From: Candidatus Aminicenantes bacterium UBA647
GTDB taxonomy: Bacteria > Acidobacteriota > Aminicenantia > UBA2199
Assembly: GCA_002299555.1 (NCBI GenBank)
Contig: DBOL01000025.1
Location: 817 to 64,816 of the forward strand
DNA: 64,000 nucleotides
Direction of reading: 5' to 3'
A program made the position numbers and the translations under genes. Under the pieces are notes generated by a model, which had not been told where the DNA came from, made no database searches, and saw only the letters and a program-made list of their open reading frames with translations. Below, in pieces: positions 12,776 through 62,921 of the stretch (the stretch's first letter is position 1; each line of letters begins with the position of its first letter).

Positions 12776-12941
12776 AGGTTAAAAAATTATATCAGACCTC
12801 CCTTAAAAAATCAATAAAAAGCAAGCGCCTGAAATTGACATTCTCTCCTTATATAATTATAATTTTTTCAGTTGCAAACACGACAATAGGGGAATGGGAA
12901 CAGAATGAATATCAGTGATGACAAAAAGGAGAGAACTGGAA

Positions 12942-29166: not shown

Positions 29167-29658
29167 TTCACTCACTTTTTTCTTATCCTTTCTTTATTCA
29201 CAATCATATTTACGAAGACCATGAAACACTATTTTATCTCAATTGTATGAAATCTCAAAATCATAACCATGAAAAAAATATTTATTGATATCAACCCAAC
29301 AACTTATACTGTTGAGAATCTCACCGGGCACTTCAGACTCATAGATAATGTCGCATGAATCTTGCCATATTAGCGAAAATAGATTTAATTCCGTAAAATT
29401 GATTAGTTATTTTAAATATGTTAGTATATAAATTACAATTGATACAATGAGAGATGGAATGAGAAAGCTCATTTCATAAATATTCTGCATATTCTTCATT
29501 TCAATTTTCCTACGGGAAAGTCCTTTTAATTGAAAAAGAAGCTCTATACACTTAATATTCAATTATTAAAAAGGGATTTTAATTTATGCTTGGAGATGTC
29601 TGATTTTTTGGACAGGATATATTTCCATGCGCTGTGTAGACAAGAATTGAGATGGAAT

Positions 29659-47391: not shown

Positions 47392-47946
47392 ATGAGAGAT
47401 ATTGACGAATTAATCTTAAAATTAAAGATCGAGCTGGGCAAAGCAGTTCCAAAAGACAAATTCAGGATCGCAATAGATGCTATCGCTGATTTTTACATGT
47501 CAAATTATAAAATATCAAAAAATGAGATTGCACTTTTATTTGCAAATAAGCATAGGACAGTTCTCTTTTTTGCCCATCCATCTTACCTTATAAATGCAGG
47601 AATGATCCCTGTAAATCTCAGCGAAGCTATCGCATCAAGGATCTTCAGAAGCGGGAAGGGTTTTATAGATAACAATCTTCAGCAACAGAGACACCTTTTC
47701 ATTTTTGAGAGTATAAAAACACCTGACAACAAGATCATGCCGATCTGGAAAATGATCGCCTCGCGGATATCCCATTCTGACAATCATTTAGGTATTATAG
47801 AGATCTCAAAAAGATCTGTAGACTTTGCAGAAGCCGGAGAGGATTTTTCCCCCTCGGATCTGCATTTCCTTGAAGAATCAATAAAAAAAGTTGCCCCTTT
47901 GATCAGTGAAGTAATGCCTGATGATTTCAGGGGACAATTCAAATGA
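47392..47946 (+). CDS. Hypothetical protein, possibly GAF-like domain
   Basis: 184 aa with GAGGAG upstream. Its end overlaps the pyrE start by 4 nt (ATGA). The GAF assignment rests only on a loose pattern (..PIWKM....I......LGIIEISK..). Confidence 0.4.
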   Translation: MRDIDELILKLKIELGKAVPKDKFRIAIDAIADFYMSNYKISKNEIALLFANKHRTVLFFAHPSYLINAGMIPVNLSEAIASRIFRSGKGFIDNNLQQQRHLFIFESIKTPDNKIMPIWKMIASRISHSDNHLGIIEISKRSVDFAEAGEDFSPSDLHFLEESIKKVAPLISEVMPDDFRGQFK

Positions 47947-48476
47947 AAGCACGTCTAAAAGAAATCCTTTTAGAACTCTCCGTTATCACCGACAGAGAAT
48001 TTACTCTTGCTTCCGGGAAAAAAAGCAATTTTTATGTTGATGCAAGGATCACTACACTACATCCTGAGGGAGCATTTATAATCGGAAAAATTTTCCTTGA
48101 TATGCTCGAAAATATCGAAGTGGACTCCATTGGCGGCTATTCTATCGGTGCAGACCCTATAGTTTCATCTATTTCAGTTCGCAGCTTCATTGAAAAGAGG
48201 CCGATCCCTGCATTTATAATAAGAAAACAGGAAAAAACTTACGGCACCGGAAAGATAATTGAAGGGAATTTTAAAAAAGGGGACAGGGTAGTTATCTTTG
48301 ATGATGTTGTGACCTCTGGAGGATCGATCCTTAAAGGTGCTGCCGAAGTTGAAAAGGCAGGGGGGACAGTGTTAGGAGTTATGGCAGTTATAGATAGAGA
48401 AGATGGTGGCAGAGAGACAATTGAAACTGCCGGCTATCCTTTCAGTTCAATATTTACGAAGAGCGATCTGCTCTAA
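47943..48476 (+). CDS. pyrE: Orotate phosphoribosyltransferase
   Basis: PRPP-binding motif VVIFDDVVTSGGS. The N-terminal F.L.SG..S..Y.D pattern is present. Size is 177 aa. Confidence 0.9.
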   Translation: MKARLKEILLELSVITDREFTLASGKKSNFYVDARITTLHPEGAFIIGKIFLDMLENIEVDSIGGYSIGADPIVSSISVRSFIEKRPIPAFIIRKQEKTYGTGKIIEGNFKKGDRVVIFDDVVTSGGSILKGAAEVEKAGGTVLGVMAVIDREDGGRETIETAGYPFSSIFTKSDLL

Positions 48477-48492
48477 GATTAATTAAAAAAAA

Positions 48493-48526
48493 AAGGCGGC
48501 ATCAGAAACAATACCGCCTTTTTCTT
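48493..48526. terminator. Bidirectional rho-independent terminator between convergent pyrE and the cytochrome operon
   Basis: Stem AAGGCGG (48493-48499) pairs with CCGCCTT (48514-48520). It is flanked by an A-run upstream and a T-run downstream. Confidence 0.6.
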
Positions 48527-48555
48527 TATTGTAATAAACTTTTAACGTCTTTTTA

Positions 48556-50706
48556 CTACCTCCATGTATAAGGAGATAAGTTACCGCCAAGATCTCCTAT
48601 AGAATCAACCAGTAACTGAGCAACATATCTGGCATTATGAATATATCCGTGAGGTTCTTTCTTTGACAGCTGAAAGTTATAGGCAGCTTTCAAAAGGTTC
48701 GCAGAAAATCTGTATCCATTTGAATATGATGCCTCTCCACTATCCACAATACCGTTATTGTTAAGATCTTTGAAGAAATACGGATAGGTATGAGAGTCAT
48801 AAACTAGTGGTGCTTTCGACTGACTTCCAACTCTTTGCATTTGCGCATACAGGCTGTCTTCAAGTCCTATGATCTCGTATTTCATTGCTTCAGTTGTATT
48901 CCCGTCTCCATCATAATCGGGAATATTTGCAGGCCTTATTCCACTGAACTTGAACTTGGACGGATCTGCACCCGGATTCGGCTGGGCAATATCCTGTCCG
49001 TGACAATCGACACAATCAGCCTGGTTGGGTTTCTGAACATTATGACCTGTATTAGGTGATTTACCTTTTGTACCCATATGACACTCGATACAAGTTACAA
49101 ATTTGTTGTCATGGTTCGGGTACATCTGGCGTCCTGCATATACTTTCCCCGGATATTCATACCCACCCTGAACCTCGGTACCGAATAGTACAGCAGCTGT
49201 CGGGAAATAGTGGATATTTGTAAATGAATAATTTCCGGTTCCACCGGCTATCTTGCTGTCAACCGAAGCTTTTGAAGCGCGTCCCTGGTGACAGGCCATA
49301 CATAAGTTACTTGCGTCTCCCAAACTGACAACATCCCCTGATGGGAATTTCACGTCTGCCAGCTGCAGCAATGCGGGAGGGCCGGTATGACATGTAGTGC
49401 AAAGCATACCATTGGCGATCGGTTCAGGATCTTCATTGGTTCCGTCAGCAACATATTTAGCAAGTCCTGTCGCGCTATGACATCTTGCACAACTTGATTG
49501 AACTTCACCGTCTCCATCCCAATGTCTCCAGGCTTCCTGTGAACCGGCAAAATGACCTTCATCATTTCTGGTCATTTTTGACATATCAACTCCTCCAGTC
49601 ACAGAATTCATGTCAGCAATAGAATCATACATAAGTTGGATAAGGTATTTGCCTCCGTGAGCAAAAGCCCCCGGATCTTTTTGAGAAGTCTGGTAGTTAT
49701 ACGCAGCTTTTGCCAATCTTGGTGTAAATTTCTTATAACTATTTGCATACACAGCTTCACCCTCATCAATAACACCATCATTATTTGTATCAGTGAAAAA
49801 ATATGGATATGTATGTGATTCATAACCGATAGTTGTTCCAACTACATTTCTGGAGTATACCAGCATCCCGTTAAAGAGGGCATCCTGAAGGCCCTTCAGT
49901 TCATAATAGATCCCTTCAGTTGTATTCCCGTCACCGTCATAATCGGTAAAAGAACCGAAATACCTGATGTTGTGGAGATCCTCTTTACTCTCAATCCCGC
50001 TATGGCATGTATCACATTGTTCAATTTTGATCTCCAATGAATGGGGATCGTGACAATCAGTACAAGAGTTGTATCCGGTTACATGACCGAATTTCCCGTC
50101 ATATGTCTGCCCTGCATATTCATAACCGCCTTTGGCAAGAGTACCGTAAAGGATAGCTCCAGCCGGGAAATAATGGATATTTGAGAACCTGATAGATGAA
50201 GAGGGTGTATCCAATGCTTTGCCGGCAAGTCCTGCCATGACTGAAGGACCTGAAGATCTTCCCTGGTGACAATTCATGCAAATACCTTCATTTCCAAGAG
50301 GTTCATATGTTCCATCTTCATTCATCTCCCCTTTCACTTCGATACCTGAAGGAAATGTCACACCGGCAAAAACCTTCGGAGTCCCATTCTCAACATTAGT
50401 GTGACAGGTTTCGCAGGTAAAGGCTCCCGGTTCATGTCCATTCGCAACAGCACCGGTATTAGTAAATTCTTCGAATCCACCTGCACTGTGACATTTTGCA
50501 CAGCTGGATGGTACAACTGCCGGTTCATCCTCATCCCAATGGACAAATGCTTCCGACGTTGAATCATTATGGCCTGAATCGGCAAATAATGAATCCTGAA
50601 CAGTTTCGAACATAGCTTTATCCATATTACAGGACTGCAGAACAAACAATCCTGTTATAAAGACAAAACAGATTCCGATTATTGATAAATTTTTTCTTTT
50701 ATTCAT
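48556..50706 (-). CDS. Decaheme c-type cytochrome lipoprotein with internal 5+5 duplication (functional analogue of MtrC/OmcA-type surface cytochromes)
   Basis: Ten CXXCH motifs: CAKCH, CETCH, CMNCH, CTDCH, CDTCH, then CARCH, CTTCH, CMACH, CIECH, CVDCH. Lipobox-like LQSC after the signal peptide. GGAGG lies before ATG 50706; the ORF-track extension to 50805 would overlap the upstream gene. Confidence 0.85.
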   Translation of the reverse strand: MNKRKNLSIIGICFVFITGLFVLQSCNMDKAMFETVQDSLFADSGHNDSTSEAFVHWDEDEPAVVPSSCAKCHSAGGFEEFTNTGAVANGHEPGAFTCETCHTNVENGTPKVFAGVTFPSGIEVKGEMNEDGTYEPLGNEGICMNCHQGRSSGPSVMAGLAGKALDTPSSSIRFSNIHYFPAGAILYGTLAKGGYEYAGQTYDGKFGHVTGYNSCTDCHDPHSLEIKIEQCDTCHSGIESKEDLHNIRYFGSFTDYDGDGNTTEGIYYELKGLQDALFNGMLVYSRNVVGTTIGYESHTYPYFFTDTNNDGVIDEGEAVYANSYKKFTPRLAKAAYNYQTSQKDPGAFAHGGKYLIQLMYDSIADMNSVTGGVDMSKMTRNDEGHFAGSQEAWRHWDGDGEVQSSCARCHSATGLAKYVADGTNEDPEPIANGMLCTTCHTGPPALLQLADVKFPSGDVVSLGDASNLCMACHQGRASKASVDSKIAGGTGNYSFTNIHYFPTAAVLFGTEVQGGYEYPGKVYAGRQMYPNHDNKFVTCIECHMGTKGKSPNTGHNVQKPNQADCVDCHGQDIAQPNPGADPSKFKFSGIRPANIPDYDGDGNTTEAMKYEIIGLEDSLYAQMQRVGSQSKAPLVYDSHTYPYFFKDLNNNGIVDSGEASYSNGYRFSANLLKAAYNFQLSKKEPHGYIHNARYVAQLLVDSIGDLGGNLSPYTWR

Positions 50707-50719
50707 CGTTTTTCCTCCG

Positions 50720-52582
50720 TTATTTCCAACTGTAACCAAAGGAAATTTCAAATATATTGGCCTTGTAATCATTATAGCCAAAATCATTTTCCTTAAAATC
50801 AACATATCTGTAATTCAACTGACCGATAAAACCTTTTTCACAAAAATACTTGAAGAAGAGTTTAAAGTTAGTTCTTGTTAATTCCCATGATCCGTTGTTC
50901 TTGTAGTAGTTTAGATAAGCTCCGAGACCAGTCTTATCACTTAGTTTTGAGTAGACATAAAGGTCGAAAAGGTTTGAAGTCCCTTCGAAGAGTATATCCC
51001 AGACATAGGTCCCCTCGCCTCCGCTCCATGATGGCGGATAATAGATTGACCTGTCCCCTTTTCTGGTAACATCGATCAGAGAATATCCGGCTGAGAAATG
51101 AAGTTTTTTCTTGTAAATTCCAAGTCTGAGGTTCAGTTGATTCTTATCCGATGTCCACATCTCACCATTTTGATCACTTTCCGACTTATTGAACAAATAT
51201 GAACCACTGAAGTAAAGATTCTTGTTCTTGTATTTGGCAGTAAGCCTGAATCTGTGAAAATCAGTAGGTGAGATAAGAGTTAACGGATTATCATAAGTCC
51301 CATATTGATAATCTGCTGTTACTCTGAATTTTTTATTAAGCCTCAAGTTCAAATTTCCGAATATTCCGGTTTTGGATGTGGGTTCATTTACATCTTCGAT
51401 AACAATTGCATCTTCCACATCTCTCTGCTCCATTCTGTATCCGATAGTGAATCCGAATTTAGTGTTTGGTTGATACTGAAGCCCTGCTTCAACTCCTCCA
51501 GTTTCATATTTAAGATCCATTGAAGTTTTCTCCCCATCAATGGTCATAGATCCGGTCTGGTCAAAATTATTATAAAAAGTAGTTCCCACCAGAGCCATCT
51601 TATCATTCAGGAAGTAGGTAAAATCGAGATCATAGACCTGAGATTTTCTTGAGAAATCGCCATCTCCAGTATAGTCATATGAAAAACCTGCACCAACATA
51701 ATCGATACCCATTGCACTTTCATCATATGTGAACTCTGTATCCTGGTTCATGATCATAAAGCTGCCTTTCAGGAGAAGCCTTTTAATTGGATTAAATGTG
51801 AATTTTGCAGTGTGCGTAATGCCTTTCATATCATACGGCATATCAAGATGGAAATAATTAAGAGCTGTCGGATATCTGGCGAAATCACCACCGTCAGCAT
51901 ATCCGGGCAGGAACATGCTTGTTGCATTCTCAAAATCAGTAAATTTTTCTTCGATCACAAATGCAAAGCTCTTTCCGCTATAATCAAACCCGAGAGTTAC
52001 TTCAGTTGACATCTCATCTATTGGTTTTTCAAACTCAAACTCAACTCTTCCGATATCAAGTGTATTAACGCTCGATCCTTTCTTTGTGTAGCTGTTAAAA
52101 TCTATATATGCATGAGCACTTTTTCCCAGCCATACTTTGAAAAGGCCTGAATCGTTTATCCGGTCAAATGCATAAGTGTGAAAATCATGTCCTTCAAGAT
52201 GGTCATTATAAAAATATTCTGATTTTCTTCTGTTAAACTTAAACTTGTACTTCCCGTTTTTCACAATATCGAGACCCATACTTTCAAATGGGTCGCCGCC
52301 AAAATTGTGAATATAGACATTCATGTAATCAAAATATTTGTTCATTTTCCCGGCGGGGGCGAAATGAATATTGAAATCGAACAATCTGACCCCATCACCA
52401 AGGTTAATATCCTCTTTGTATTTTGATTCAACTCCGCTTACATCAACATACCTGTACCCTACCAGGAATTTTCCGTAAAACTCATCCTCACCTTGTTCTC
52501 CGGCAGAAAGGGATATTGATGACACAAATCCACAGAACAGGATAACCATTAAAATTGTTAAAAATGATTTATTTATTTTCAT
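50720..52582 (-). CDS. Large outer-membrane beta-barrel, MtrB/PioB-like position in a porin-cytochrome module
   Basis: Signal peptide and 620 aa of alternating aromatic/Gly/Asn/Asp-rich strand-like sequence with no Cys-rich or catalytic motif. It sits between two decaheme genes with 10 and 13 nt gaps. Confidence 0.6.
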   Translation of the reverse strand: MKINKSFLTILMVILFCGFVSSISLSAGEQGEDEFYGKFLVGYRYVDVSGVESKYKEDINLGDGVRLFDFNIHFAPAGKMNKYFDYMNVYIHNFGGDPFESMGLDIVKNGKYKFKFNRRKSEYFYNDHLEGHDFHTYAFDRINDSGLFKVWLGKSAHAYIDFNSYTKKGSSVNTLDIGRVEFEFEKPIDEMSTEVTLGFDYSGKSFAFVIEEKFTDFENATSMFLPGYADGGDFARYPTALNYFHLDMPYDMKGITHTAKFTFNPIKRLLLKGSFMIMNQDTEFTYDESAMGIDYVGAGFSYDYTGDGDFSRKSQVYDLDFTYFLNDKMALVGTTFYNNFDQTGSMTIDGEKTSMDLKYETGGVEAGLQYQPNTKFGFTIGYRMEQRDVEDAIVIEDVNEPTSKTGIFGNLNLRLNKKFRVTADYQYGTYDNPLTLISPTDFHRFRLTAKYKNKNLYFSGSYLFNKSESDQNGEMWTSDKNQLNLRLGIYKKKLHFSAGYSLIDVTRKGDRSIYYPPSWSGGEGTYVWDILFEGTSNLFDLYVYSKLSDKTGLGAYLNYYKNNGSWELTRTNFKLFFKYFCEKGFIGQLNYRYVDFKENDFGYNDYKANIFEISFGYSWK

Positions 52583-52592
52583 GATTCTGCTC

Positions 52593-53402
52593 CTATTTCA
52601 AAAATAATTTATCCAGGTTGGAACCATGGATGGATGAATGGCAATTAGCACAATTTGTATCATTAGCAAGGAATCTCAAATGCCAGTCCGGTGCAACTGA
52701 ATGACAGCTGAAGCATAATTCCCTTACACTCTGATGTTTAAGCATATGCCTGTTCGGTGACCCGTGGACATCATGACAAGCTGTACAGCCTTCAACGCTG
52801 GATGCTTCATGTTCATGCATGAAAGGGCCGCCTTTATCACGGTGACATTTCAAACATGATTCCTGCTTAAAACCACCGAGTCTCTGACGTGCCGCACTCT
52901 CATGAGGATTATGGCATGAAGTACACTCAAGGATCCCTTCTGCAAGGCGGTGTTTTTCATTCAGCATGAATTCCGTGGCAACATCCTGATGACAGGATGT
53001 ACAAAGTTTTGTGTTAAGTTTTGCCATTGAATTCACTTTTTTATGAACTCCATGACACTTGGTACAATCTATACCTGCTTTTGAATGTTCACCATTCATA
53101 AAACCTCCAACAACCGTTTTATGACAGGACAAACATTGTTTGGATTTCTGAAGTGCAGTCTCATTTTTGAATGAGAATATATTCCCGGACTCAGCATTAT
53201 CCAGATGCTTTGCAGCATTTCCATGACAGTCGATACATTTTGCGCTGGAAATACCATGAGCTGTTCCGATAAACTTCACGGAAACTTCATCATGGCACTC
53301 AGCACAAACATTTCCGGCACCCTCTTCTCCGAAAATATCAACCGAAAGGAACACTGTCAGACAGAACGTCATTAACAATACTCCGAAGATTCGTTTATTC
53401 AA
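52593..53402 (-). CDS. Periplasmic decaheme c-type cytochrome (MtrA/DmsE-like size and heme density)
   Basis: Ten CXXCH motifs in 269 aa: CAECH, CIDCH, CLSCH, CTKCH, CTSCH, CTSCH, CLKCH, CTACH, CFSCH and CANCH. It has a signal peptide but no lipobox. The start is TTG, with AGGAGG 8 nt upstream. Confidence 0.85.
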   Translation of the reverse strand: MNKRIFGVLLMTFCLTVFLSVDIFGEEGAGNVCAECHDEVSVKFIGTAHGISSAKCIDCHGNAAKHLDNAESGNIFSFKNETALQKSKQCLSCHKTVVGGFMNGEHSKAGIDCTKCHGVHKKVNSMAKLNTKLCTSCHQDVATEFMLNEKHRLAEGILECTSCHNPHESAARQRLGGFKQESCLKCHRDKGGPFMHEHEASSVEGCTACHDVHGSPNRHMLKHQSVRELCFSCHSVAPDWHLRFLANDTNCANCHSSIHGSNLDKLFLK

Positions 53403-53471
53403 TTTTCCTACCTCCTAATATTTATTTTGTTAATCTTTAACTTTATAGTTAAAGTCTTAACAATTAAAAGA

Positions 53472-53487
53472 AGCATTAAACTTGCCA
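53472..53487 (-). promoter_or_regulatory. Candidate sigma-54 (-24/-12) promoter: TGGCAAG-N4-ATGCT
   Basis: The minus strand reads TGGCAAGTTTAATGCTT. The invariant GG and GC lie at the consensus spacing of TGGCACG-N4-TTGCW, with 2 mismatches. It is about 70-85 nt upstream of the decaheme start codon. Confidence 0.4.
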
Positions 53488-53560
53488 CGCCTTGTTAATG
53501 TAACTGGTTTTGTTTTATTTGAATTATAGGGATTCTTCAATACTGCAACAATTCATCAGT

Positions 53561-53595
53561 GTGTTCAAAACCGAACACATGTTCAATTTTGAACA
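53561..53595. promoter_or_regulatory. Two tandem inverted repeats TGTTC-N6-GAACA (TGT-N10-ACA type), a candidate enhancer-binding-protein UAS
   Basis: GTGTTC-AAAACC-GAACAC at 53561-53578 and TGTTCAA-TT-TTGAACA at 53580-53595. Their centres are 18 bp apart and lie about 80-105 bp upstream of the candidate -24 element. Confidence 0.4.
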
Positions 53596-53616
53596 ACCAC
53601 TATGCCAATAAAGTAT

Positions 53617-54561
53617 TTACTTATTTCTCCGATAGGTCCTTAATAACACTCTGTAACTTCGTTTAAATATTTTATTGCTCAGCTCTATTTTCCCATTACT
53701 TTCAAGGATCTCCGCAGCTTTGTAAATTGCAGGGAAGAAAGATGGTTCTATAAGAGAAAATCTTGAAAGGTTTTTAATGTTTTCCGGTGAAGGATCAGTT
53801 ATTGATCTTCCTAAATAGAGACCTAATTTCAATCTTTTTGAATCCTTTGCTTTTAAAGCCTCTGTAAAAAAAAATTCTGACTCCATTATTTTATCCTGCA
53901 TAATGAGAGCATATCCATAACCGAGTCCGGCTTCCTCATTTTCACTATCCTTTTCTACAGCTTTTTTGTATATATTCTCTGCAAGTTGATAATTTCCGTC
54001 TATTATCAGAGTAAAAGCCTGCTTTGTTATCCGGTTGAGTTTCCTTTGCTCAAGTTTTTTATCAAACTCTTTGTATACATCACCCGGAGCCTCTCCTTTT
54101 CCAAGAGCCAGTAAATGATTTTTAAAGAATAGACTCAAATTTGATCTGTAACTGACGATCAATGAGTTCAGAATTCCTGCCTCGTTAATAAAGAGCACCG
54201 TGGGCATAACTATGATCCCGAGATTACCATAAATTTTTCTTTCAGGATCATTGAGATTTTTCTTCTCTCCTTTAATTTTGTTAAAAAGGATCATCACCCT
54301 TTTGTCAGTTTCATTATTAACATCAACAAGGAGAAAATAAAGATTTTTTCTTGAATTATATACTTTGCTGAATTGTCTGAAGAATGCAATGGATCTGGGC
54401 TCATCCGATTTCAAATACAGCAAAACCGACTTCTCTTTTCCCTCGAGAAACTTCAACTCATTGACCAGAGGGATATTATCGCCGGTCTTTATCTCCCGCA
54501 AGCCTTCAACATCTGCAGGAAACATATAAAAAGTTAAAAGCAGTAAAACTATTGCTTTCAT
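53617..54561 (-). CDS. Secreted protein with a Cys-less thioredoxin-like N-domain and TPR-like C-domain (function unknown)
   Basis: Signal peptide. A TlpA/redoxin-like strand-helix pattern (SVLLYLKSDEPRS..FF......LYFLLVDVN....MPTVLFI) lacks the CXXC. The C-terminus is a helical repeat region. An ATGA overlap links it to the upstream cytochrome gene. Confidence 0.4.
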   Translation of the reverse strand: MKAIVLLLLTFYMFPADVEGLREIKTGDNIPLVNELKFLEGKEKSVLLYLKSDEPRSIAFFRQFSKVYNSRKNLYFLLVDVNNETDKRVMILFNKIKGEKKNLNDPERKIYGNLGIIVMPTVLFINEAGILNSLIVSYRSNLSLFFKNHLLALGKGEAPGDVYKEFDKKLEQRKLNRITKQAFTLIIDGNYQLAENIYKKAVEKDSENEEAGLGYGYALIMQDKIMESEFFFTEALKAKDSKRLKLGLYLGRSITDPSPENIKNLSRFSLIEPSFFPAIYKAAEILESNGKIELSNKIFKRSYRVLLRTYRRNK

Positions 54562-55844
54562 AACCCCTTAACCTTTTTATTTCTGTCATATGAATATTCT
54601 TTGTGACATCCTGGTGCACAACTTCCACCGGTTTTTGTCTTTTCAAATCCAACCGGCAGGCTCCATTTCCCAAATGGTGTCTCTTTTCTAATGTGTTTGG
54701 GCAGATTACTGGCATGGATCTCATGACATGCCCGGCAAGTCCTCCCCTTTGTCATGTTCACATGAACATAATGGAGATTCCAGTCACCATCTCTAAAATT
54801 TGTAAGAGCTACGGTTCTTTCAACCTTTGCCAGTTTGCTCTCATGACATTCGAAGCAGGAAGCATATTTTTTCTCTTCATAAGCAGTATAGAATTCTTTC
54901 GGGAATTCATCCTTAAGGATCATATAAAAATCAGAACCATGAGGATCATGACACCCGGTACAATTACCATCCTTAATAGGACCGTGTTTGAATTTGTTTC
55001 TGTTCACGATCTTAAAAATATTGTAATCCTTACCATCCGTTCCAATTAATTTTTTGTCATGGCAATTAAGGCAAAGTTTAAGTGGAGAAATTTTGAGGTT
55101 ATTATCATAAAGAGAGCCGTGTGCATCATGGCAGTTGTAGCATTTCTTATTCTCATTTACTACAGCATGTTTGAACTTTACTGAATCAACTTTATCTGTT
55201 ATTTTTTTGTGACATTCACTACAGAGTTTTTCACGATCTGCAATTAATTGAAATTCATGGCCGGAGGAGTGAGGGCTGTGACATTTTGAACAACCCTCTT
55301 TCATAGGAGAGTGCATTTTCTGATCCGCACCTGAAAAATCCTTATCAGAATGACACCTTGTACATATTACTTTCATAGGCTCGACAAGGAGAAATTTATT
55401 ATTTGAACTGTGGGACTCATGACATAACGAGCAATTTCCCGAAGCGTTGGGTCCATGAACAAATTTTTTGTTCATCGGGTCTTCATCATGGCAGTCAAAG
55501 CATACCTTGTCGATCCTCTTATGCTTTAAAAAGGCTTTGTAATCTCCGCCATGCGAAAAATGACAATCTGTACAATCGCCTGAGGAGACAGCATCATGCA
55601 CATTTTTTTTGTCGGTCTGATCGTCATGACACTCATTACAATGTTCATTAATATTTGCGATCTTTGTAAATTTGTGATCGCCTGTCTTTTCATGACAGGT
55701 AAGGCAATCATCATCAACAGGTGCATGGATCACTTTGTAATCTTTCATATCCTTATGACACTCTGAAGTCACACAACTTTTTTCTGCACCGCCTGCAAAA
55801 GAAAAAAGAAATAAAACAGCTAATAATGCATAAAATAATTTCAT
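54558..55844 (-). CDS. Periplasmic multiheme c-type cytochrome, 13 CXXCH plus CX4CH and CX3CH variants (c7/c3-type repeat architecture)
   Basis: Canonical motifs: CLTCH, CNECH, CTDCH, CFDCH, CSLCH, CTRCH, CSKCH, CSECH, CYNCH, CLNCH, CTGCH, CFECH and CRACH. Variants: CVTSECH and CAPGCH. Signal peptide present, with GGAGG upstream. Confidence 0.85.
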   Translation of the reverse strand: MKLFYALLAVLFLFSFAGGAEKSCVTSECHKDMKDYKVIHAPVDDDCLTCHEKTGDHKFTKIANINEHCNECHDDQTDKKNVHDAVSSGDCTDCHFSHGGDYKAFLKHKRIDKVCFDCHDEDPMNKKFVHGPNASGNCSLCHESHSSNNKFLLVEPMKVICTRCHSDKDFSGADQKMHSPMKEGCSKCHSPHSSGHEFQLIADREKLCSECHKKITDKVDSVKFKHAVVNENKKCYNCHDAHGSLYDNNLKISPLKLCLNCHDKKLIGTDGKDYNIFKIVNRNKFKHGPIKDGNCTGCHDPHGSDFYMILKDEFPKEFYTAYEEKKYASCFECHESKLAKVERTVALTNFRDGDWNLHYVHVNMTKGRTCRACHEIHASNLPKHIRKETPFGKWSLPVGFEKTKTGGSCAPGCHKEYSYDRNKKVKGL

Positions 55845-55855
55845 CCTAATACCTC

Positions 55856-57538
55856 CTATTTTTCATAATCTTCCGGAGAATGATCTTCTCCATGACATTG
55901 CAGATAGCAATATCCTTTATTTCCTACGACTTCAAATTTTAACTCACCATCTAAATTCGGAAAAACAACACTCGTATCAAAATTAATTAATCCGATATTT
56001 TGCCTTGACCCATGAGGATCATGACATACTGAACATGGGGTGCTCTCTTCATTAATATGTTTCTTGTGATATTTAAAGGTTGTCAGATTTTCACTCATTA
56101 TGATCTCCGGCCTGTGACACTTCCAGCAAAGATCATAATTTGATTGTTGATAAGGCATCCCGGATGCAATCAAATACCTTCTTTCCAATAAGTTCTCATG
56201 AATTGAACCATGAGGCCCTTCAGGGCCACTACCACCTGCTTTCATTGAATTATTATTGTTATGACAATCGGTACAATTCATTATCGACGCAACATTCCAT
56301 GCAGGTCGCAAAGAGGGGACACCTGAAATTCCTCCTTTTTGTACAACACTATGAAAACTCTTATTGGAGGGGAGAAAGGCTTCCCTCATATTAGAATTCT
56401 GATATTGTCTGCTGACATCAAAACTATTGTATTTATCCTGCCCGTGACATTTCAAGCAAACCTCAAATTCAAATTGTGATTCTTCAATAATTGATCCGGT
56501 AATATTCATCCCTGATACGCCCGCCAACCGCCCATTAACCTGAGGGGCAACTGATTTTAATGAATTTACTCTGTGAGGATTATGGCAGTCAACACACTGA
56601 ACGTGAATATTGTTTAATAATATATTCTCTTTTGCATCGTGAATATTGCTGTATAAAGCAGAATCAACTGAATGAGATACATTTTTTCTCAACTCAGATC
56701 TAATATCAATACCGGTATTACCATTGTGACAAGCTAAACACGATTCCGAATCAGGGCCCTTTAGTAATAAATGGTGACTCCCCTCTGCATTATGACTTTG
56801 ATGACAATTCATACAGGAATTCTCAGTTACAGACTTATTGTTCGTATGAAACCACGGGTTCTTTCCAACTCCACTCCACGTCTTAGCCGAAATATCGTGA
56901 GTGGAAAGTCCATTATATCCTATAGGATCATGACATGATTTACACAAGGCTCCACCTGAAATATCTTTAACCAGAAATTTCGGGAAATTATCATGGTGAG
57001 GATCGTGACAGGTTGTACATTGGATCTTCCCATTCTTATCATATCCCACTTTATCATCAAGAGAAGGGTGCTTATACTCCGGAGAGGATGAAACAACGTT
57101 ATTACTACTAAAAGATATGGGATGATCATCTGAGATATTTTCTCCCAGGTTAGCAGAATGACCCCTTGGGAATCTTCCTGCATCTGTATTAGTTACAGAC
57201 ATATTTTCTGATCGGTTCAGCACTCTCCCCAATGCTATTGTCCCATCGTGACATGAAAGGCAAAGTTTCGAAGCTCCGTCAGGTTGTCCCAGAACAGAGT
57301 ACAATGTGGAGCTGCTGTAAAGTGTGTATTGAACCGAAGAACTTTCACGATTCCACAGAGGGAAATTCTTACCTTTTGTGTGAGAAGTGTGGCAAAAAAT
57401 ACAAATTTGACTGTCACTTGTGGCTTTGATATTGCCAGCACTGGAACTTGACAAATTGTGCTTTGAATTCTTTATACTTCTCGATGAAGCAAAAAATCCT
57501 AAAATAAAAATTAATGAAAAAATCGCAAGTCTCTTCAT
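55856..57538 (-). CDS. Multiheme c-type cytochrome, 11 CXXCH plus one CX3CH (doubled-CXXCH / Geobacter-type family)
   Basis: Canonical motifs: CIFCH, CLSCH, CTTCH, CKSCH, CMNCH, CLACH, CVDCH, CLKCH, CTDCH, CWKCH and CSVCH. Variant: CYLQCH. The N-terminal SKHNLS....CIFCHTSH...PLWN pattern is present, with a signal peptide. Confidence 0.85.
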   Translation of the reverse strand: MKRLAIFSLIFILGFFASSRSIKNSKHNLSSSSAGNIKATSDSQICIFCHTSHTKGKNFPLWNRESSSVQYTLYSSSTLYSVLGQPDGASKLCLSCHDGTIALGRVLNRSENMSVTNTDAGRFPRGHSANLGENISDDHPISFSSNNVVSSSPEYKHPSLDDKVGYDKNGKIQCTTCHDPHHDNFPKFLVKDISGGALCKSCHDPIGYNGLSTHDISAKTWSGVGKNPWFHTNNKSVTENSCMNCHQSHNAEGSHHLLLKGPDSESCLACHNGNTGIDIRSELRKNVSHSVDSALYSNIHDAKENILLNNIHVQCVDCHNPHRVNSLKSVAPQVNGRLAGVSGMNITGSIIEESQFEFEVCLKCHGQDKYNSFDVSRQYQNSNMREAFLPSNKSFHSVVQKGGISGVPSLRPAWNVASIMNCTDCHNNNNSMKAGGSGPEGPHGSIHENLLERRYLIASGMPYQQSNYDLCWKCHRPEIIMSENLTTFKYHKKHINEESTPCSVCHDPHGSRQNIGLINFDTSVVFPNLDGELKFEVVGNKGYCYLQCHGEDHSPEDYEK

Positions 57539-58470
57539 TCCGTCTCCTGAATTACCTTGAAAATTTGTATCCTGCTGTTGTAAGTATCTAAAACAAAGAT
57601 TCTTCCCGCTTTATCTAATAGTATCCCGCTTGGCATCCAAAAATTTAAGTCTCCACTTCCGGGGCCACCAAAATAATGCAAAAACTGTCCGGAACTATCA
57701 AAAATCTGGATATTGTCAAACATTACATCAGTTACATATATCCTCTTTTCGGAATCAACAGCTATACCTTTAGGCTTCGAAAATTCGCCCCCACTTCGCC
57801 CGTTTCTACCAAATGTGGCGACAAACTCTCCACTATGATCAAATATCTGAACTCTGAAATTTAATGCATCAGTGATATATATGCTATCTGTATCAACAAC
57901 AATATGTGTAGGATAATTGAACTTCCCGATTTCACTTCCACGATCTCCAAAATGGAGAATCTCTTTACCTTCCAGATCATAAATTACAACCTGATGATTT
58001 TGTGTGTCAGTACAAAATAATTTTCCAAGATAAAAATATATCCCGGTTATCCTTCTGTTCTGGTCACTTATTAAAATTCTTTTATATTTCAGATCCTTTC
58101 CAAATTCAATGACAGACCTGTAATATGAGTCCGAAACATAAAATCCCCCTGAATTCCCCCTGGCACAACTTACAGGTGAAATAAAATTCTTCCCATTGAA
58201 AGTTGAAATGTTTTTTTTCCTGTCTCCTTTCTCATTGATGATAACGATACGACCATTTGACTGATCTGTGACACAATACAGCCCTTTATCTATTTCCACA
58301 ATTGAGACCGGTTTGATCAGGAGGTCAGGTTTTTTCCCGAATAAAACCTCTACAATATTTTTTTTCTTCTTACCTTTTAGATCAATTATTTTTTCAAGCT
58401 TAACGGTCTCACCGGAAGCAAAAGTGCTGATCAGTAAAATTGAAAGTATTAATGAAATTAGATTTTTCAA
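57535..58470 (-). CDS. NHL-repeat six-bladed beta-propeller protein (periplasmic)
   Basis: Signal peptide. Repeated ~45 aa units have F..P.GI..D..G.IYV.D..N.RIQ.F (for example YPTHIVVDTDSIYITDALNFRVQIFD and PKGIAVDSEKRIYVTDVMFDNIQIFD). The start is TTG, overlapping the upstream stop (TTGA). Confidence 0.8.
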   Translation of the reverse strand: MKNLISLILSILLISTFASGETVKLEKIIDLKGKKKKNIVEVLFGKKPDLLIKPVSIVEIDKGLYCVTDQSNGRIVIINEKGDRKKNISTFNGKNFISPVSCARGNSGGFYVSDSYYRSVIEFGKDLKYKRILISDQNRRITGIYFYLGKLFCTDTQNHQVVIYDLEGKEILHFGDRGSEIGKFNYPTHIVVDTDSIYITDALNFRVQIFDHSGEFVATFGRNGRSGGEFSKPKGIAVDSEKRIYVTDVMFDNIQIFDSSGQFLHYFGGPGSGDLNFWMPSGILLDKAGRIFVLDTYNSRIQIFKVIQETE

Positions 58471-60425
58471 AAAAGCCTCCTTATAATTATACTGAAATAT
58501 GTGTGCTTCTTATTCGCTAAATAGTAATCATTCAGGAAATGTTCAAAGAACAGATCGATCACCACTTTTCTGATCGTCCAATTGAATTTGATTATAAGGC
58601 TTTCTCTTTCTGCCAGATATACCGAGGTTTTATTACTTAAATATCTGTATATGGCATTGAACCTGACTCCGTGCCTTGGATTAAAAGTCAGATCTCCCAT
58701 ATACAATTTATAATCTCCTCTCAGATCACCATTATCATAATGTGTTATTTTTGAGATAAAGTTACCTGAAAATTTAAAATATTTCAAAAATCCAAATCCT
58801 GAATTGAGCCTGAAGTATCTTGAACGATATCCTGAAAAAGATGAACTATACCTGTCAATCATGTATTCACAATTGACCAGCCTTGCATCTACGCGAAATC
58901 CATAGTTTTCACTTTCAAAATCTTCGTACGGTTGAACAAGATATTCAGAACTAAGAAACATATCATTATCATACTTCCTGTAAAACAGATGGAAATATTT
59001 CAAAAAATATAAAGAAGCACTGATCTGAGTGTAATCATTCCTCAGCTTATGATCCGGGAAGGTCTGATAATGATAATAGATAGCCACCCTCTCTCCGGAC
59101 GACATTGCGCCTCCGGGGATCCTGAGGATATTAATAACATTGTCAACAATAGTAATTTCATAATCGATGTATTCAATGTATATTCTGGTCAGATCCACAT
59201 TGGTTATTCGGATACTGTCAACTTGAATTCCCGGAATTGATAATAAGATCGTATCTGAAAAAGTAAACTTCCTGAATTCACTTACTTCAGAGATATCACT
59301 TTTTGAAATAAAATCACGATTTTCAATGCTTTTCCCCAAATTAAAATTTATTGCTCCATTTTTGATCTTTTTTGTGTAATTAATCGTCAATTGACCTTTA
59401 TAAGACTTGATATCCTGGAAAGAAGAATTCTCAAGTCTTCCTGACAATGAAGCTGTTGTTGTGAGACTGTCAAAAAGTTTATGTCTTAACGAAGATACAA
59501 GTTCCCCTTTCTGATAGGAATTATTATTTGACAGATCATTTGAATATGAAAATAAATTAAGTGAGAACAGGCCCTTCCGGATGAAGTTACTGGTATTAAA
59601 TGTGAAACCTAAGGTTTCCAGTGAAAGATCTTCTGTCATTTTCCGGTATGACACATTTGATATAACAAAGTTCCTCTTACTATTCCCGTAAAAATAGGAA
59701 AAATCATTCCGGATATCAAATGATTGAAAATTCAGACCATAAACCTTTTCTGAAAAATCTTTCCAATTTGATCTGAGCGTTAACTTACCGTTCTTAATAC
59801 GTGCAAGATCGGAATAAAATTCTATATTTTTGCTTTCTTCATTTCTCTCTTCATAAGATATCGATTCCGATAAACTTTTACTTTTGTATGCTTTCAACCT
59901 GAAAGGTAATAATTTTGTCCCGTTGCTGATCGCGAATCCAATACTTTCATTCAACAGATATTTCCTCTCAAAATAGTTTCGGTCCGATGTACTGAAACCT
60001 TTCATTGCAAAAATATCAAAATGTATTTTCTTCTTCTTAAATAAATTCAGGACAATATTGTAAGTGTTGTTGACAGAATTGTTAATGTCAGAATCTGAAA
60101 ACAATGTCCTTTTTGCTCTATAACCTACCAGACTAAAATTTATATTAAATGTCAACAGATTGGGATGGTAAATGCTTCCACTGGAATTTATCTGAATTCC
60201 ACCTTCAAAATACTTTCGAAAAATATCACTGCTAACAAGACCGTCAAATGAATCAATATCGCTGGTTGACTCATATTTAAGGATAAATGCTCCCGAAAAA
60301 TCGGATAGTTTAAATAAAGAAATTTCCTGTGCTGACAAATAATTAAAAGGAATAAACAACAAATTCAATACAACAATAACTTTCAAAAGGGATTTATTCC
60401 GGATAGCCTTAAAAAATTTTCTCAT
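58467..60425 (-). CDS. Large outer-membrane beta-barrel candidate of the second cytochrome module
   Basis: Signal peptide (..NYLSAQE). 652 aa of Tyr/Phe/Asn/Ser-rich alternating sequence ending ..IIIRRLF, with a C-terminal Phe typical of OMPs. ATGA overlaps occur on both sides. Confidence 0.55.
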   Translation of the reverse strand: MRKFFKAIRNKSLLKVIVVLNLLFIPFNYLSAQEISLFKLSDFSGAFILKYESTSDIDSFDGLVSSDIFRKYFEGGIQINSSGSIYHPNLLTFNINFSLVGYRAKRTLFSDSDINNSVNNTYNIVLNLFKKKKIHFDIFAMKGFSTSDRNYFERKYLLNESIGFAISNGTKLLPFRLKAYKSKSLSESISYEERNEESKNIEFYSDLARIKNGKLTLRSNWKDFSEKVYGLNFQSFDIRNDFSYFYGNSKRNFVISNVSYRKMTEDLSLETLGFTFNTSNFIRKGLFSLNLFSYSNDLSNNNSYQKGELVSSLRHKLFDSLTTTASLSGRLENSSFQDIKSYKGQLTINYTKKIKNGAINFNLGKSIENRDFISKSDISEVSEFRKFTFSDTILLSIPGIQVDSIRITNVDLTRIYIEYIDYEITIVDNVINILRIPGGAMSSGERVAIYYHYQTFPDHKLRNDYTQISASLYFLKYFHLFYRKYDNDMFLSSEYLVQPYEDFESENYGFRVDARLVNCEYMIDRYSSSFSGYRSRYFRLNSGFGFLKYFKFSGNFISKITHYDNGDLRGDYKLYMGDLTFNPRHGVRFNAIYRYLSNKTSVYLAERESLIIKFNWTIRKVVIDLFFEHFLNDYYLANKKHTYFSIIIRRLF

Positions 60426-60973
60426 ATCTTTTTCAGGAAAAATTTGTTGTCAGAGATATGGGGATCATGACATTCAAGGCAATTATCTCCTTTACAGGGG
60501 AGTGACGCTCCTGTTATTGGAGTTCTGTGGCATAAAACACATAGTTTCTTCCCATCTGCCAGCAGGAGTTTTCTGTTCTCGGATTGATGAGGGTTATGAC
60601 ATGTATTACATGCCCTTACTGCAACCGGCCCATGAACATATGGCCCTTCGAATTTTTCCTCCTTATGACAGATAAAACAGAGCTCTTTTTTCCCTGCTCT
60701 CAGAAAATTTGAAACATCTCTGGTATGACATTTGGTACACTCTTTTGTTTTATAATCGGGATGAGTTGATATGAATCGAACCTTAACGACTTTACGCCGA
60801 TCCTGCCCGGCAATATTTTTATCCTCAGTTTTAATTACTTGCCCGACCTCTGGCCCGGGGACACCATCAAAAAAAACCGAAAGAACTTTTCTATGCTTTT
60901 GAACAACGCAGGAACTCAATAAAATGAGGTTGATTAAAAAAAATACTACTAAAACAGAATTATTTTTCTTCAT
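60422..60973 (-). CDS. Pentaheme c-type cytochrome lipoprotein
   Basis: Motifs CTKCH, CFICH, CNTCH, CVLCH and CLECH. The signal peptide has lipobox-like LLSSC when started at MKKNNS (60973); the ORF-track extension to 61012 is unlikely. Confidence 0.8.
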   Translation of the reverse strand: MKKNNSVLVVFFLINLILLSSCVVQKHRKVLSVFFDGVPGPEVGQVIKTEDKNIAGQDRRKVVKVRFISTHPDYKTKECTKCHTRDVSNFLRAGKKELCFICHKEEKFEGPYVHGPVAVRACNTCHNPHQSENRKLLLADGKKLCVLCHRTPITGASLPCKGDNCLECHDPHISDNKFFLKKI

Positions 60974-62066
60974 ATTCTCCAAATGCATATACATTAACTT
61001 TATTTTTCCCAAAATTAGAAGTTATATACAATAAATATTCGGCTTTAAAATCCGGAGAAATATATTTGGAAAACAAAGATAAATTTTCATAATCAATTGT
61101 AATCGCCGCCGGCATATAAAGGTTATACCTCTCCCTTCCGGGCCCAAGCATGTGAAGGAGTAATTTCTTTTCTTTATTAAATATCTGTACATTCTGAAAT
61201 GCAGAATCGATTACATATATCCGCCCCTGTTTGTCAATATCGATCCCCTTCGCTCTGACAAAATTTCCCGGGCGATCACCGATACGCCCCAGACTGTCAA
61301 TATATTTTCCATTGATATCAAAGATAGATACTCTGTTATTTGTTGAGTCAACAATAAAGATTTTGTTCTCAAAAATTTTTATACTTGTCGGATGATACAA
61401 TTGCCCTTCCATCCTCCCCTTTTCACCGATCCGCCTTAAAATTTCCCCTGTCCTGATATCCAACACAAGAATCTGATGGGCTTTTACATCACTGACAAAC
61501 AGTTCATCTCCTCTAATATCAATATCAGATGGAGAAAACTCCCTCTTTTCACCATATACTTTCAGCAGATCACCATCAATATTATAAGCAAGAACCTGCT
61601 TTCTTAACATGTCTGCAACATATATAATGTTATTTTCTTTATCAATTGTTATATTCACGGGCTTTAAAAGTCTGCCCTGACCTTTATATCCCAAAAATCC
61701 AAGTTTCCTTTTTACCAGATCCAGAGTAACAACAACGTTGCTTCTGGAATCACATACATATATAACTCCTCTGTATGAATCAACACCATGTGCCTTTTTT
61801 ATTACAAAATCTTTCTTTGTCTCAGAACCGGCAACAAATCTAAAGAATTTACTTTTCTTTTTCTCAATATCACTTGAAGTAGTGAAAGTTGTCAGATATT
61901 GATATCTGGGTTTTGCCGGCAAAGGCGGAAAAAAAACATATTTTTTTTTGTTATCAGGGGAAGTTTTCAGTGTATTATACTTTGAGCAGAAAGGGAATAG
62001 CGTCACCAATAACATAATCATTACAAGTGATAGTGTTTTCCCGATTCTCATGTCCAAGGGATGCAT
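60960..62066 (-). CDS. NHL-repeat beta-propeller lipoprotein
   Basis: Lipobox LFPFC. NHL units include AHGVDSYRGVIYVCDSRSN.VV, PVNITIDKENNIIYVADMLRKQVLAY, HPTSIKIFENKIFIVDSTNNRVSIFD and AKGIDIDKQGRIYVIDSAFQNVQIFN. AGGAG lies 6 nt before ATG 62066. Confidence 0.8.
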   Translation of the reverse strand: MHPLDMRIGKTLSLVMIMLLVTLFPFCSKYNTLKTSPDNKKKYVFFPPLPAKPRYQYLTTFTTSSDIEKKKSKFFRFVAGSETKKDFVIKKAHGVDSYRGVIYVCDSRSNVVVTLDLVKRKLGFLGYKGQGRLLKPVNITIDKENNIIYVADMLRKQVLAYNIDGDLLKVYGEKREFSPSDIDIRGDELFVSDVKAHQILVLDIRTGEILRRIGEKGRMEGQLYHPTSIKIFENKIFIVDSTNNRVSIFDINGKYIDSLGRIGDRPGNFVRAKGIDIDKQGRIYVIDSAFQNVQIFNKEKKLLLHMLGPGRERYNLYMPAAITIDYENLSLFSKYISPDFKAEYLLYITSNFGKNKVNVYAFGEYEEK

Positions 62067-62131
62067 TTCTCTCTCCTTCAATGAAACTATAAAACAATAT
62101 TACCAAAAGGAATTATAAAATTAAAGAATCC

Positions 62132-62167
62132 TAAAAAAAAAGCCCCGATCGTAACCGAGGCTTTTTT
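62132..62167 (-). terminator. Rho-independent terminator after the tetraheme gene
   Basis: The imperfect GC-rich hairpin AGCCCCGATCGTAACCGAGGCT at 62141-62162 is flanked by A9 on one side and T6 on the other. Read on the minus strand, the hairpin is followed by a T9 run. Confidence 0.55.
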
Positions 62168-62197
62168 GTTACTTTTTAACTTAATACAACAATAAAA

Positions 62198-62839
62198 TTA
62201 TTTGTTATGACAGGTCAGACAAAGAGCACTCTGAACATTGCTCTTTCTGAGAAGATTTGCTACATTTGCAGTATTGTGAACATCATGACAAGACGAGCAC
62301 TCAAGAAGGTTATTACCGGCACCCTCTAGCATATCATCATCGATATTCGCTCCCAATCCGGACGCAGTCAAAGTCGGATCATGAAGTTCGGTATCCAGAG
62401 CAACTAAAGCTACATCGTAAGCAATGGAGATCGGATGATCATTTGACAAATCCAGACCTACATTAGCAGCACCTGTTAAAGGTACCGTTCCAACTGTACC
62501 GCCAAAGCTGTCCAGTGCAGTAACGCCATCATGACATGATAAACACAGCAATGAAACCCCGGCAGGATCCCCTACTGTTGCATTCATATCATATCCTGCT
62601 CCATAATTTACGAATGTTTGAGTTGATTCTGTATGATTCCATAGTGGAGCATCTGTAATTGTTGCGTCACCATTATGAGGAGTATGACATGGCTGACATA
62701 ACTCGCCTCCAGTCCCACTATTCCATGCATCTGCATTAAATCCGGTTCCGTCGCTAAAATCATGAGCTGAACCACCAATCAGAGCATAAAGACCTGCTGC
62801 AACCGTGATCGAAAGTAAAATAAATAATACTTTTTTCAT
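62198..62839 (-). CDS. Tetraheme c-type cytochrome (doubled-CXXCH family), secreted
   Basis: Motifs CQPCH, CLSCH, CSSCH and CLTCH. The pattern SAHDF....CQPCHTPHN....APLWN is present. There is a signal peptide from MKKVLF (62839), with AGGAG upstream. Confidence 0.85.
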   Translation of the reverse strand: MKKVLFILLSITVAAGLYALIGGSAHDFSDGTGFNADAWNSGTGGELCQPCHTPHNGDATITDAPLWNHTESTQTFVNYGAGYDMNATVGDPAGVSLLCLSCHDGVTALDSFGGTVGTVPLTGAANVGLDLSNDHPISIAYDVALVALDTELHDPTLTASGLGANIDDDMLEGAGNNLLECSSCHDVHNTANVANLLRKSNVQSALCLTCHNK

Positions 62840-62892
62840 TATAAACTCCTTTAAAATTAATTTAATATGACATTTCCATGACATACAAAGAT

Positions 62893-62921
62893 AATATAGA
62901 TTCAAATCGTTTATATGTCAA
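62893..62921 (-). promoter_or_regulatory. Sigma-70-type promoter for the tetraheme gene: TTGACA-N17-TATATT
   Basis: On the minus strand, TTGACA lies at 62921-62916, followed by a 17 nt spacer and TATATT at 62898-62893. This is about 55 nt upstream of the start codon. Confidence 0.5.

Follow-up and report, generated by a model that had tools for sequence, protein, structure and literature searches.

A candidate trans-outer-membrane electron conduit with a non-MtrC decaheme lipoprotein in Candidatus Aminicenantes

A three-gene multiheme operon

The window analyzed here is a 64,000-nucleotide (nt) stretch of the Candidatus Aminicenantes bacterium UBA647 genome (contig DBOL01000025.1, positions 817 to 64,816), and its subject is a three-gene operon that we call A-B-C. 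The operon encodes a secreted decaheme cytochrome, a large barrel candidate and a decaheme lipoprotein, and it was originally predicted to be an Mtr-like module. Lengths are given in amino acids (aa) and positions are those of the window.

53402..52593, minus strand: gene A, 269 aa, TTG start, AGGAGG ribosome-binding site, 10 CXXCH motifs
52582..50720, minus strand: gene B, 620 aa, AGGAG Shine-Dalgarno sequence, signal peptide, C-terminal …FGYSWK, no heme motif
50706..48556, minus strand: gene C, 716 aa, GGAGG ribosome-binding site, lipobox LQSC, 10 CXXCH motifs

Counting by script gives exactly 10 CXXCH motifs in A, none in B and exactly 10 in C, and together with the export motifs this bears out the predicted composition of the module. 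The three genes are co-oriented and the predicted spacings hold, with 10 nt between A and B and 13 nt between B and C. A Shine-Dalgarno sequence precedes all three starts (AGGAGG, AGGAG and GGAGG for A, B and C, respectively), and such short gaps combined with ribosome-binding sites indicate that A, B and C are co-translated. The start of gene C can be placed in several ways. The longest open reading frame is 749 aa, and public calls (JGI, Logan and NCBI) give 738 aa, from a start 66 nt farther upstream than 50706 that overlaps the end of B. The deposited 738-aa start is probably an error, because the ATG at 50706 has the GGAGG and a clean lipoprotein signal peptide. The 716-aa form opens MNKRKNLSIIGICFVFITGLFVLQSC, a canonical lipoprotein signal (…FVLQSC).

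The original prediction had set the A-B-C gene order apart from that of mtrCAB. The difference is real but the order is not unusual. The pioAB and mtoAB genes run A then B, as the window genes do, and dmsEFAB likewise has the A-then-B order. Shewanella mtrDEF shares the full A-B-C order of the window operon, and in Halieaceae clusters mtrC follows mtrAB (Baker et al. 2022, PMC8805035).

The decaheme cytochrome A

Judging from its family matches, A is a compact, divergent periplasmic decaheme cytochrome of the MtrA/DmsE type. It matches the NCBIfam model TIGR03508 (DmsE family) at 169.3 bits with an expect value (E) of 1e-49, covering profile positions 3-257 of 258, and its homologues at 50-60% identity carry the label "DmsE family decaheme c-type cytochrome" in JGI and NCBI. 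The best solved-structure match (phmmer against PDB) is 6r2q_A, with an E of 8.9e-24 over residues 51-263. This chain is MtrA of the Mtr complex, although it was deposited under a wrong label. Matches to other cytochrome classes are short or partial: the NrfH model reaches an E of 1.4e-8 over 32 residues and stays below its cutoff, the NapC/NirT model is sub-threshold (E 0.009), the TmcA match is partial (E 5e-9), and the c3 models give short, sub-threshold matches alone. A CymA/NrfH-type identity is ruled out by these short partial matches and by the lack of any membrane anchor besides the signal peptide, which was read by eye from the sequence. The predicted grouping of the 269-aa protein with MtrA, as opposed to NapC/NrfH/CymA or c3, is thus upheld by the TIGR03508 and 6R2Q matches.

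Among 28 homologues of A, all 10 CXXCH motifs are invariant, as are 9 other histidines (a further 2 are near-invariant) and a C-terminal HGSN motif. The CXXCH motifs of C are likewise all invariant across its 38 homologues, and for this reason the motifs of neither protein can be put down to chance.

The predicted barrel B

The AlphaFold2 model of B, built on the homologue alignment, is all-beta, with a predicted local distance difference test score (pLDDT) of 83.4 and a predicted template modelling score (pTM) of 0.73. The DSSP string holds 28 strand elements, which come down to about 26 strands when a bulged strand at 240-247 is merged with 250-266 and a 4-residue turn fragment is dropped; MtrB has 26. 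When the model is compared with PDB by Foldseek, the top match is 6r2q_B (MtrB), with an E of 3.3e-16 and template modelling (TM) scores of 0.68/0.65, and the next matches are 22-strand TonB-dependent receptors with a TM of at most 0.47. Identity to MtrB is 12% in the structural alignment. The 620-aa barrel candidate of the original prediction is therefore predicted to be a large beta-barrel with MtrB as its closest structural match.

The link of B to MtrB came from the fold comparison alone, as searches of PDB by sequence found nothing either by phmmer or with a 35-sequence profile. The sole sequence-family match of B is the generic PF13505, at 27.8 bits just under the cutoff of 28.7. Of the 35 homologues in the profile, 4 weakly match TIGR03509 (best E 3.7e-7), 6 match PF11854 MtrB_PioB (best E 2.8e-10) and 28 weakly match the GSU2204 family, and NCBI gives one relative, at 49% identity, the name "MtrB/PioB family." The scoring was extended to eight distant barrels, all belonging to other phyla. 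None reaches the TIGR03509 cutoff (the highest has 28.5 bits vs 240), and one exceeds the PF11854 gathering score (37.9 vs 23), a pattern which places the B clade beside canonical MtrB/PioB, as its sister, and not within it. Membership of B in curated MtrB/PioB by transitivity was rejected, as the distant relatives miss the TIGR03509 cutoff. On its model, B is an MtrB-like sheath by fold that stands outside the curated MtrB/PioB sequence family, and by their profile scores A and B together form a pair in a deep clade outside the curated MtrA and MtrB models.

Besides DmsE, the nearest named NCBIfam neighbors of the A-B pair are NF041027/NF041028, the Geobacter GSU2203 decaheme and the GSU2204 "CXXCH-containing (seleno)protein." Scores of A and of the B homologues fall far below the cutoffs of these models (325 and 350), A reaching 149 bits against the GSU2203 model. 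The GSU2204 family carries a CXXCH or selenocysteine motif, whereas no B homologue has a CXXCH. The comparison suggests that GSU2203/GSU2204 is an uncharacterized MtrAB-like pair in Geobacter.

The decaheme lipoprotein C

Protein C is built from an internal tandem duplication in which residues 42-366 align with residues 381-706 at 39% identity (z 82). Each half has five CXXCH motifs and five further histidines at equivalent positions, and all 10 CXXCH motifs and all 10 non-motif histidines are invariant in the 38 homologues. Ten invariant distal histidine candidates for ten hemes argue that no catalytic site is open, and the pattern suggests ten bis-His hemes of the electron-transfer type. The C model (pLDDT 82.3, pTM 0.76) consists of helices and loops with short beta hairpins only. 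In each half, three long helices and a small hairpin come after a loop-rich heme domain, the helices spanning residues 266-289, 329-343 and 352-370 in the first half and 608-629, 669-683 and 692-705 in the second.

By both profile and model comparison, C is not a member of the MtrC/OmcA family, as had been suspected by eye. It scores 24.6 bits against TIGR03507 (OmcA/MtrC), for which the cutoff is 209.3, and no MtrC, OmcA, MtrF or UndA chain is present among the 31 Foldseek matches of C at E <= 10. PF22113 gives 31.2 bits as a whole-protein sum over about 50 residues, with no single domain passing, and this match is non-specific because unrelated neighboring cytochromes score higher (47.6 and 51.5 bits). 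Against PDB, the one match to the single sequence of C is a cytochrome c chain whose E of 0.65 is no better than noise, and the 38-sequence profile finds spurious zinc-ribbon uS14 matches alone and no MtrC, OmcA, MtrF or UndA.

The best Foldseek match is OcwA (6i5b), with an E of 1.4e-4, a probability of 1.0 and TM scores of 0.25 (query) and 0.35 (target) over 341 columns. The second is OmhA (6qvm), with an E of 0.028, and NrfA enzymes appear at noise level (E about 1). The link between C and OcwA is best treated as a fold-level lead drawn from the model, not as established homology.

Distribution and gene neighborhood

An identical B with the same gene content and order is present in JGI metagenome 3300031920, in a Logan assembly and in NCBI assembly GCA_030626715.1. 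The closest named relatives are metagenome-assembled genomes (MAGs) of Candidatus Aminicenantes, whose B is 83-94% identical. A scan with the B alignment, taking one genome per species, yielded 79 loci. These are mostly from Aminicenantes, with others from Acidobacteriota, Thermoanaerobaculia, a few Gammaproteobacteria, Binatia and Nitrospinota, and from MAGs labelled Deferrimicrobium and Desulfaltia. In 72 of the 74 loci with enough flanking sequence, gene A is the immediate upstream neighbor of B, and in 48 of 66 C is the immediate downstream neighbor. The presence of C follows the identity of B: C is found downstream in 44/46 loci at 40% or more, in 4/12 between 30 and 40%, and in 0/8 below 30%.

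Loci lacking C have either A-B alone, which is the PioAB/MtoAB layout, or another cytochrome. In one Aminicenantes locus (L037, 3843-9868), a 17-heme protein of 670 aa follows A-B and an octaheme lipoprotein precedes A. In another, on a closed MAG chromosome (L012, 7873-8769), the C-type gene is short (298 aa, 5 hemes) and represents either a lone module or a truncated copy. The third gene is thus swappable within Aminicenantes, and C has been dropped or replaced in distant lineages.

An exhaustive search with a single C module gave 311 clusters (50% identity) at E <= 1e-30, with one, two or three module copies per protein. One C relative, in a Candidatus Abyssubacteria MAG (L083, BAAHGW010000016.1, 4358-10084), has three modules and 15 hemes. 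Its gene comes after those for a 469-aa barrel (ending …SIEF) and a 14-heme lipoprotein of 329 aa, and its position behind a different barrel and lipoprotein indicates that it holds the outermost-cytochrome slot there. Another C-family protein (P0135) has no barrel nearby and adjoins NrfD and iron-sulfur (Fe-S) quinol-oxidoreductase-like genes.

A likely electron conduit across the outer membrane

The predicted Mtr-like nature of the module is supported, as the barrel and cytochrome comparisons are both favorable. We consider it likely that the operon encodes a trans-outer-membrane electron conduit in which A is threaded in B and C serves as the outer partner toward extracellular acceptors. 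In this mechanism, A would be exported by the Sec pathway and loaded with ten bis-His hemes, and its passage through the lumen of the roughly 26-strand B would create an insulated heme wire across the outer membrane. The lipid-anchored C, with its two pentaheme modules, would dock on the outer face of B, take electrons from the distal heme of A and hand them on outside the cell, for instance to Fe(III)/Mn(IV) minerals, humics, electrodes or partner cells. Transcription would begin at a sigma-54-type promoter, be controlled from two upstream palindromes and end at the hairpin after C. The gene structure, heme motifs, conserved axial-ligand candidates and the A-B and A-B-C synteny were established directly, and it is by analogy with MtrCAB (6R2Q) and from the gene neighborhood that A would lie inside B, that C would be surface-exposed and in contact with A, and that electrons would flow outward. 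C is placed outermost because its closest folds are cell-surface terminal reductases and because a C relative occupies the third-gene slot in Abyssubacteria, behind a different barrel and a cytochrome of periplasmic type. A lipopolysaccharide outer membrane, as the barrel requires, is indicated by an LpxC gene in the same window.

Several observations weigh against this assignment. A falls under the curated TIGR03508 cutoff (169.3 vs 192.2 bits), and B has no match to TIGR03509 or PF11854 at E <= 0.01. The likeness of C to OcwA is weak and confined to one module. Lipoproteins face the periplasm by default, and in about one third of the C homologues no cysteine follows the signal peptide, which means that lipid anchoring is not constant across the C family. 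The window encodes no quinol dehydrogenase of the inner membrane. MtrAB-type cores also run inward (PioAB, MtoAB).

It is possible, though we think it unlikely, that the same A-B-C machine works inward and carries electrons from extracellular Fe(II), cathodic minerals or partner cells to the periplasm. The distant B relatives in Acidobacteriota, Thermoanaerobaculia and Gammaproteobacteria have A-B only and no third cytochrome, which is the PioAB/MtoAB layout, and cores of the MtrAB type oxidize Fe(II) in PioAB/MtoAB, in pathways that can be bidirectional (PMC8805035; PMC8258643). The window clade, however, has a large decaheme partner, which according to the literature accompanies outward reduction in characterized systems, and no genes for autotrophy or a high-potential acceptor adjoin the operon. 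Aminicenantes are moreover described as anaerobic fermenters or organotrophs (PMC5569505). None of these counter-points is decisive.

Alternatively, A-B alone may be the conduit, with C not on the surface but acting as a periplasm-facing or secreted cytochrome that feeds electrons to A or stores them. This is more doubtful still. It would agree with the default orientation of lipoproteins, with the roughly one third of C homologues that have no lipobox cysteine, with the many lineages that keep A-B in the absence of C, and with the barrel-free setting of P0135 beside NrfD and Fe-S quinol-oxidoreductase-like genes. On the other side, C comes directly after B in 44 of the 46 close loci, a C-type protein takes the outermost-cytochrome position in an independent porin-cytochrome cluster, and the nearest folds are those of surface reductases. 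External partners also follow their A-B genes elsewhere, as dmsAB do. The same is true of mtrF, another external partner (PMC8805035). A catalytic C of the NrfA superfamily, acting on a soluble substrate such as nitrite, hydroxylamine or sulfur oxyanions and fed by A-B outside the cell as DmsEF feeds DmsAB, is very improbable: its fold matches do lie in the NrfA/OcwA/OmhA group and OcwA reduces nitrite and hydroxylamine in vitro (PMC6703420), but C has no CXXCK motif, its similarity to NrfA is at noise level (E about 1), and its ten hemes are matched by invariant distal histidines, five per module, with no obvious penta-coordinate heme where OcwA has two that are open (PMC6703420).

Relation to characterized systems

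A close counterpart of the proposed conduit is Shewanella MtrCAB/MtrDEF (6R2Q). Shared features are a periplasmic decaheme with ten bis-His-type sites (A to MtrA, E 9e-24), a barrel of about 26 strands whose best fold match is MtrB (TM 0.68), a 1:1:1 gene set, and a decaheme lipoprotein in two pentaheme halves; this last likeness of C to MtrC is an analogy of layout, not evidence of homology. There are also clear differences. MtrA exceeds A in length by about 60 residues, and gammaproteobacterial MtrB has an N-terminal CXXC motif which is missing from the window B. MtrC has two flavin-binding beta-barrel domains that alternate with its two pentaheme domains, whereas C has neither the sequence nor the fold of the MtrC family and carries helical domains instead. 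The hosts of MtrCAB/MtrDEF are Proteobacteria, while the window host belongs to Aminicenantes.

PioAB/MtoAB and DmsEF(AB) share with the window a decaheme and barrel core in A-then-B order, and the PioAB/MtoAB layout is matched exactly by the distant B relatives. The window clade differs in its dedicated decaheme third gene and in having no high-potential iron-sulfur protein (PioC), no MtoD/CymA neighbor and no dimethyl sulfoxide reductase. Geobacter OmaB-OmbB-OmcB likewise pairs a periplasmic cytochrome with a barrel and adds a lipoprotein cytochrome on the outside. The Geobacter porin-cytochrome (Pcc) systems combine an octaheme with a porin of about 20 strands that is not known to be related to MtrB, and their clusters run barrel, cytochrome, outer cytochrome, as does the Abyssubacteria locus. 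Membership of the window operon in the Geobacter Pcc group was rejected, A being a DmsE-type decaheme and B MtrB-like in fold.

For C, the best and only meaningful fold matches are OcwA from Thermincola potens and OmhA from Carboxydothermus ferrireducens. OcwA is made up of a heme domain of globular shape and a C-terminal three-helix bundle reminiscent of NrfA (PMC6703420). The modelled C modules have a comparable plan, in which three long helices come after a heme domain, and all three proteins have been proposed as terminal extracellular reductases. No sequence similarity between C and OcwA or OmhA is detectable by phmmer or profile, however, and the TM scores are 0.25-0.35. The heme sets differ as well: the 2 x 5 hemes of C each have a distal histidine candidate, OcwA has 9, including two that are open, and OmhA has 11 together with an S-layer domain. 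OcwA and OmhA are from Gram-positive bacteria, while C is from a diderm and coupled to a porin-cytochrome core. The OcwA/OmhA group is reported to be very poorly represented in databases, both of its characterized members coming from Gram-positive bacteria (bioRxiv 10.1101/2022.02.24.481543).

Published work mentions, in general terms, porin-cytochrome clusters of an MtrB-like kind from outside Proteobacteria (PMC7399161; PMC7005843), and the view that MtrAB is modular and takes variable outer partners is well established (Baker et al. 2022, PMC8805035). The novelty lies in the candidate outer partner, a non-MtrC, tandem pentaheme protein of an OcwA/NrfA-like family for which no earlier description was found. 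In the open-access literature, we found no account of the A-B-C module in Aminicenantes or of the C family. A broader reading, which we put forward tentatively and hold to be possible rather than probable, is that C represents a modular, hitherto undescribed extracellular electron-transfer family that sits on varied diderm conduits as a Gram-negative counterpart, and possibly an evolutionary relative, of OcwA/OmhA, and that Aminicenantes, by this route and with a deep-branching MtrAB clade missed by present family models, respire minerals or exchange electrons with partner cells. The unit of such a family would be the pentaheme-plus-three-helix module, present in one to three copies in diderms of several phyla.

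Aminicenantes (OP8) occur in large numbers in anoxic sediments, aquifers and the deep subsurface. That dozens of their genomes conserve the complete proposed conduit speaks for respiration of minerals or for direct electron transfer between species, and would give the group a role in iron and carbon cycling. Marker tools keyed to TIGR03509/TIGR03507 can be expected to miss the module, because B and C fall under those cutoffs. The locus also offers a natural test of MtrAB as a universal core with interchangeable outer partners (Baker et al. 2022). As a compact, repeat-built family of surface cytochromes, C may in addition be usable in engineered conduits.

Terminator and candidate upstream control elements

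The ends of the operon are marked by the following features.

48486..48527, no strand assigned: bidirectional intrinsic terminator on which gene C and a phosphoribosyltransferase gene (47943-48476, plus strand) converge
53487-53473, minus strand: candidate sigma-54-type -24/-12 element TGGCAAGTTTAATGC (GG-N10-GC), 71 nt before the A start codon
53595-53580 and 53577-53562, no strand assigned: two TGTTC-N6-GAACA palindromes, candidate upstream activating sequence

A strong bidirectional terminator had been predicted at 48493-48526, and direct folding confirmed it where a simple pattern scan had missed it. The hairpin has a folding free energy of -22.6 kcal/mol (z -5.6), none of 200 shuffled sequences folds as well, and it is flanked by an A-run on the 5' side and a T-run on the 3' side.

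The promoter region predicted at 53403-53616 does contain candidate promoter elements, but these are of the sigma-54 type with upstream palindromes and not of the sigma-70 type. On the coding strand, no sigma-70-like site was found in the 214-nt spacer that precedes A, and a scan of the whole region for such sites found 14 against 19.7 expected, which is no enrichment. The -24/-12 motif alone is not rare, with 2 matches in the window against 0.97 expected. The other TGGCA-N7-TGC match (TGGCAAGATTCATGC, 29353-29367, minus strand) is intergenic between two plus-strand genes. The palindromes are far less expected, as TGTTC-N6-GAACA would be expected 0.05 times in the 64-kb window and is present at these two sites only. 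They are spaced 18 bp centre to centre and lie about 84 nt upstream of the sigma-54-type element.

Both elements recur in relatives. The same or a similar GTTC-N6-GAAC palindrome is found upstream of A in loci L004, L005, L007, L008, L009, L011 and L074, and in L004, L005, L009, L011 and L074 the A start is preceded, at a distance of 74-86 nt, by a TGGCA(C)-N-TTGC/ATGC element. In L007, both elements are at shorter distances, with the TGGCA-type element 28 nt before the estimated A start. Among the relatives sharing both elements, A is 91-93% identical in L004 and L005, 85% in L007 and 48-54% in L009, L011 and L074. The operon is probably driven from a sigma-54-type promoter with candidate activator sites. 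An enhancer-binding protein was also looked for, and none is encoded in the window, which has no GAFTGA motif.

Neighboring genes

A second, separately transcribed cluster lies directly upstream of the operon at 53617-62905 on the minus strand, and several of its genes overlap by 4 nt. It encodes the following proteins.

235 aa, tetraheme cytochrome
373 aa, NHL beta-propeller lipoprotein
196 aa, pentaheme lipoprotein
652 aa, no family match, ends …RRLF, possibly another outer-membrane barrel
311 aa, NHL propeller
560 aa, cytochrome with 11 CXXCH and 1 longer motif
428 aa, cytochrome with 13 CXXCH and 2 longer motifs
314 aa, TPR protein

This cluster adjoins A-B-C only in the closest relatives (L004-L007). 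In combining NHL and multiheme proteins, it is similar to the outer-cytochrome clusters of Desulfovibrio ferrophilus on which FeGenie draws.

Farther away, at 12915-14264 on the plus strand, the window encodes a 449-aa protein in which an N-terminal receiver domain is fused to LpxC (TIGR00325, 224 bits, above cutoff). It was considered as an NtrC-type activator of the operon and rejected, being a receiver-LpxC fusion. LpxC is the committed enzyme of lipid A synthesis, and a fusion of this kind is unusual for it.

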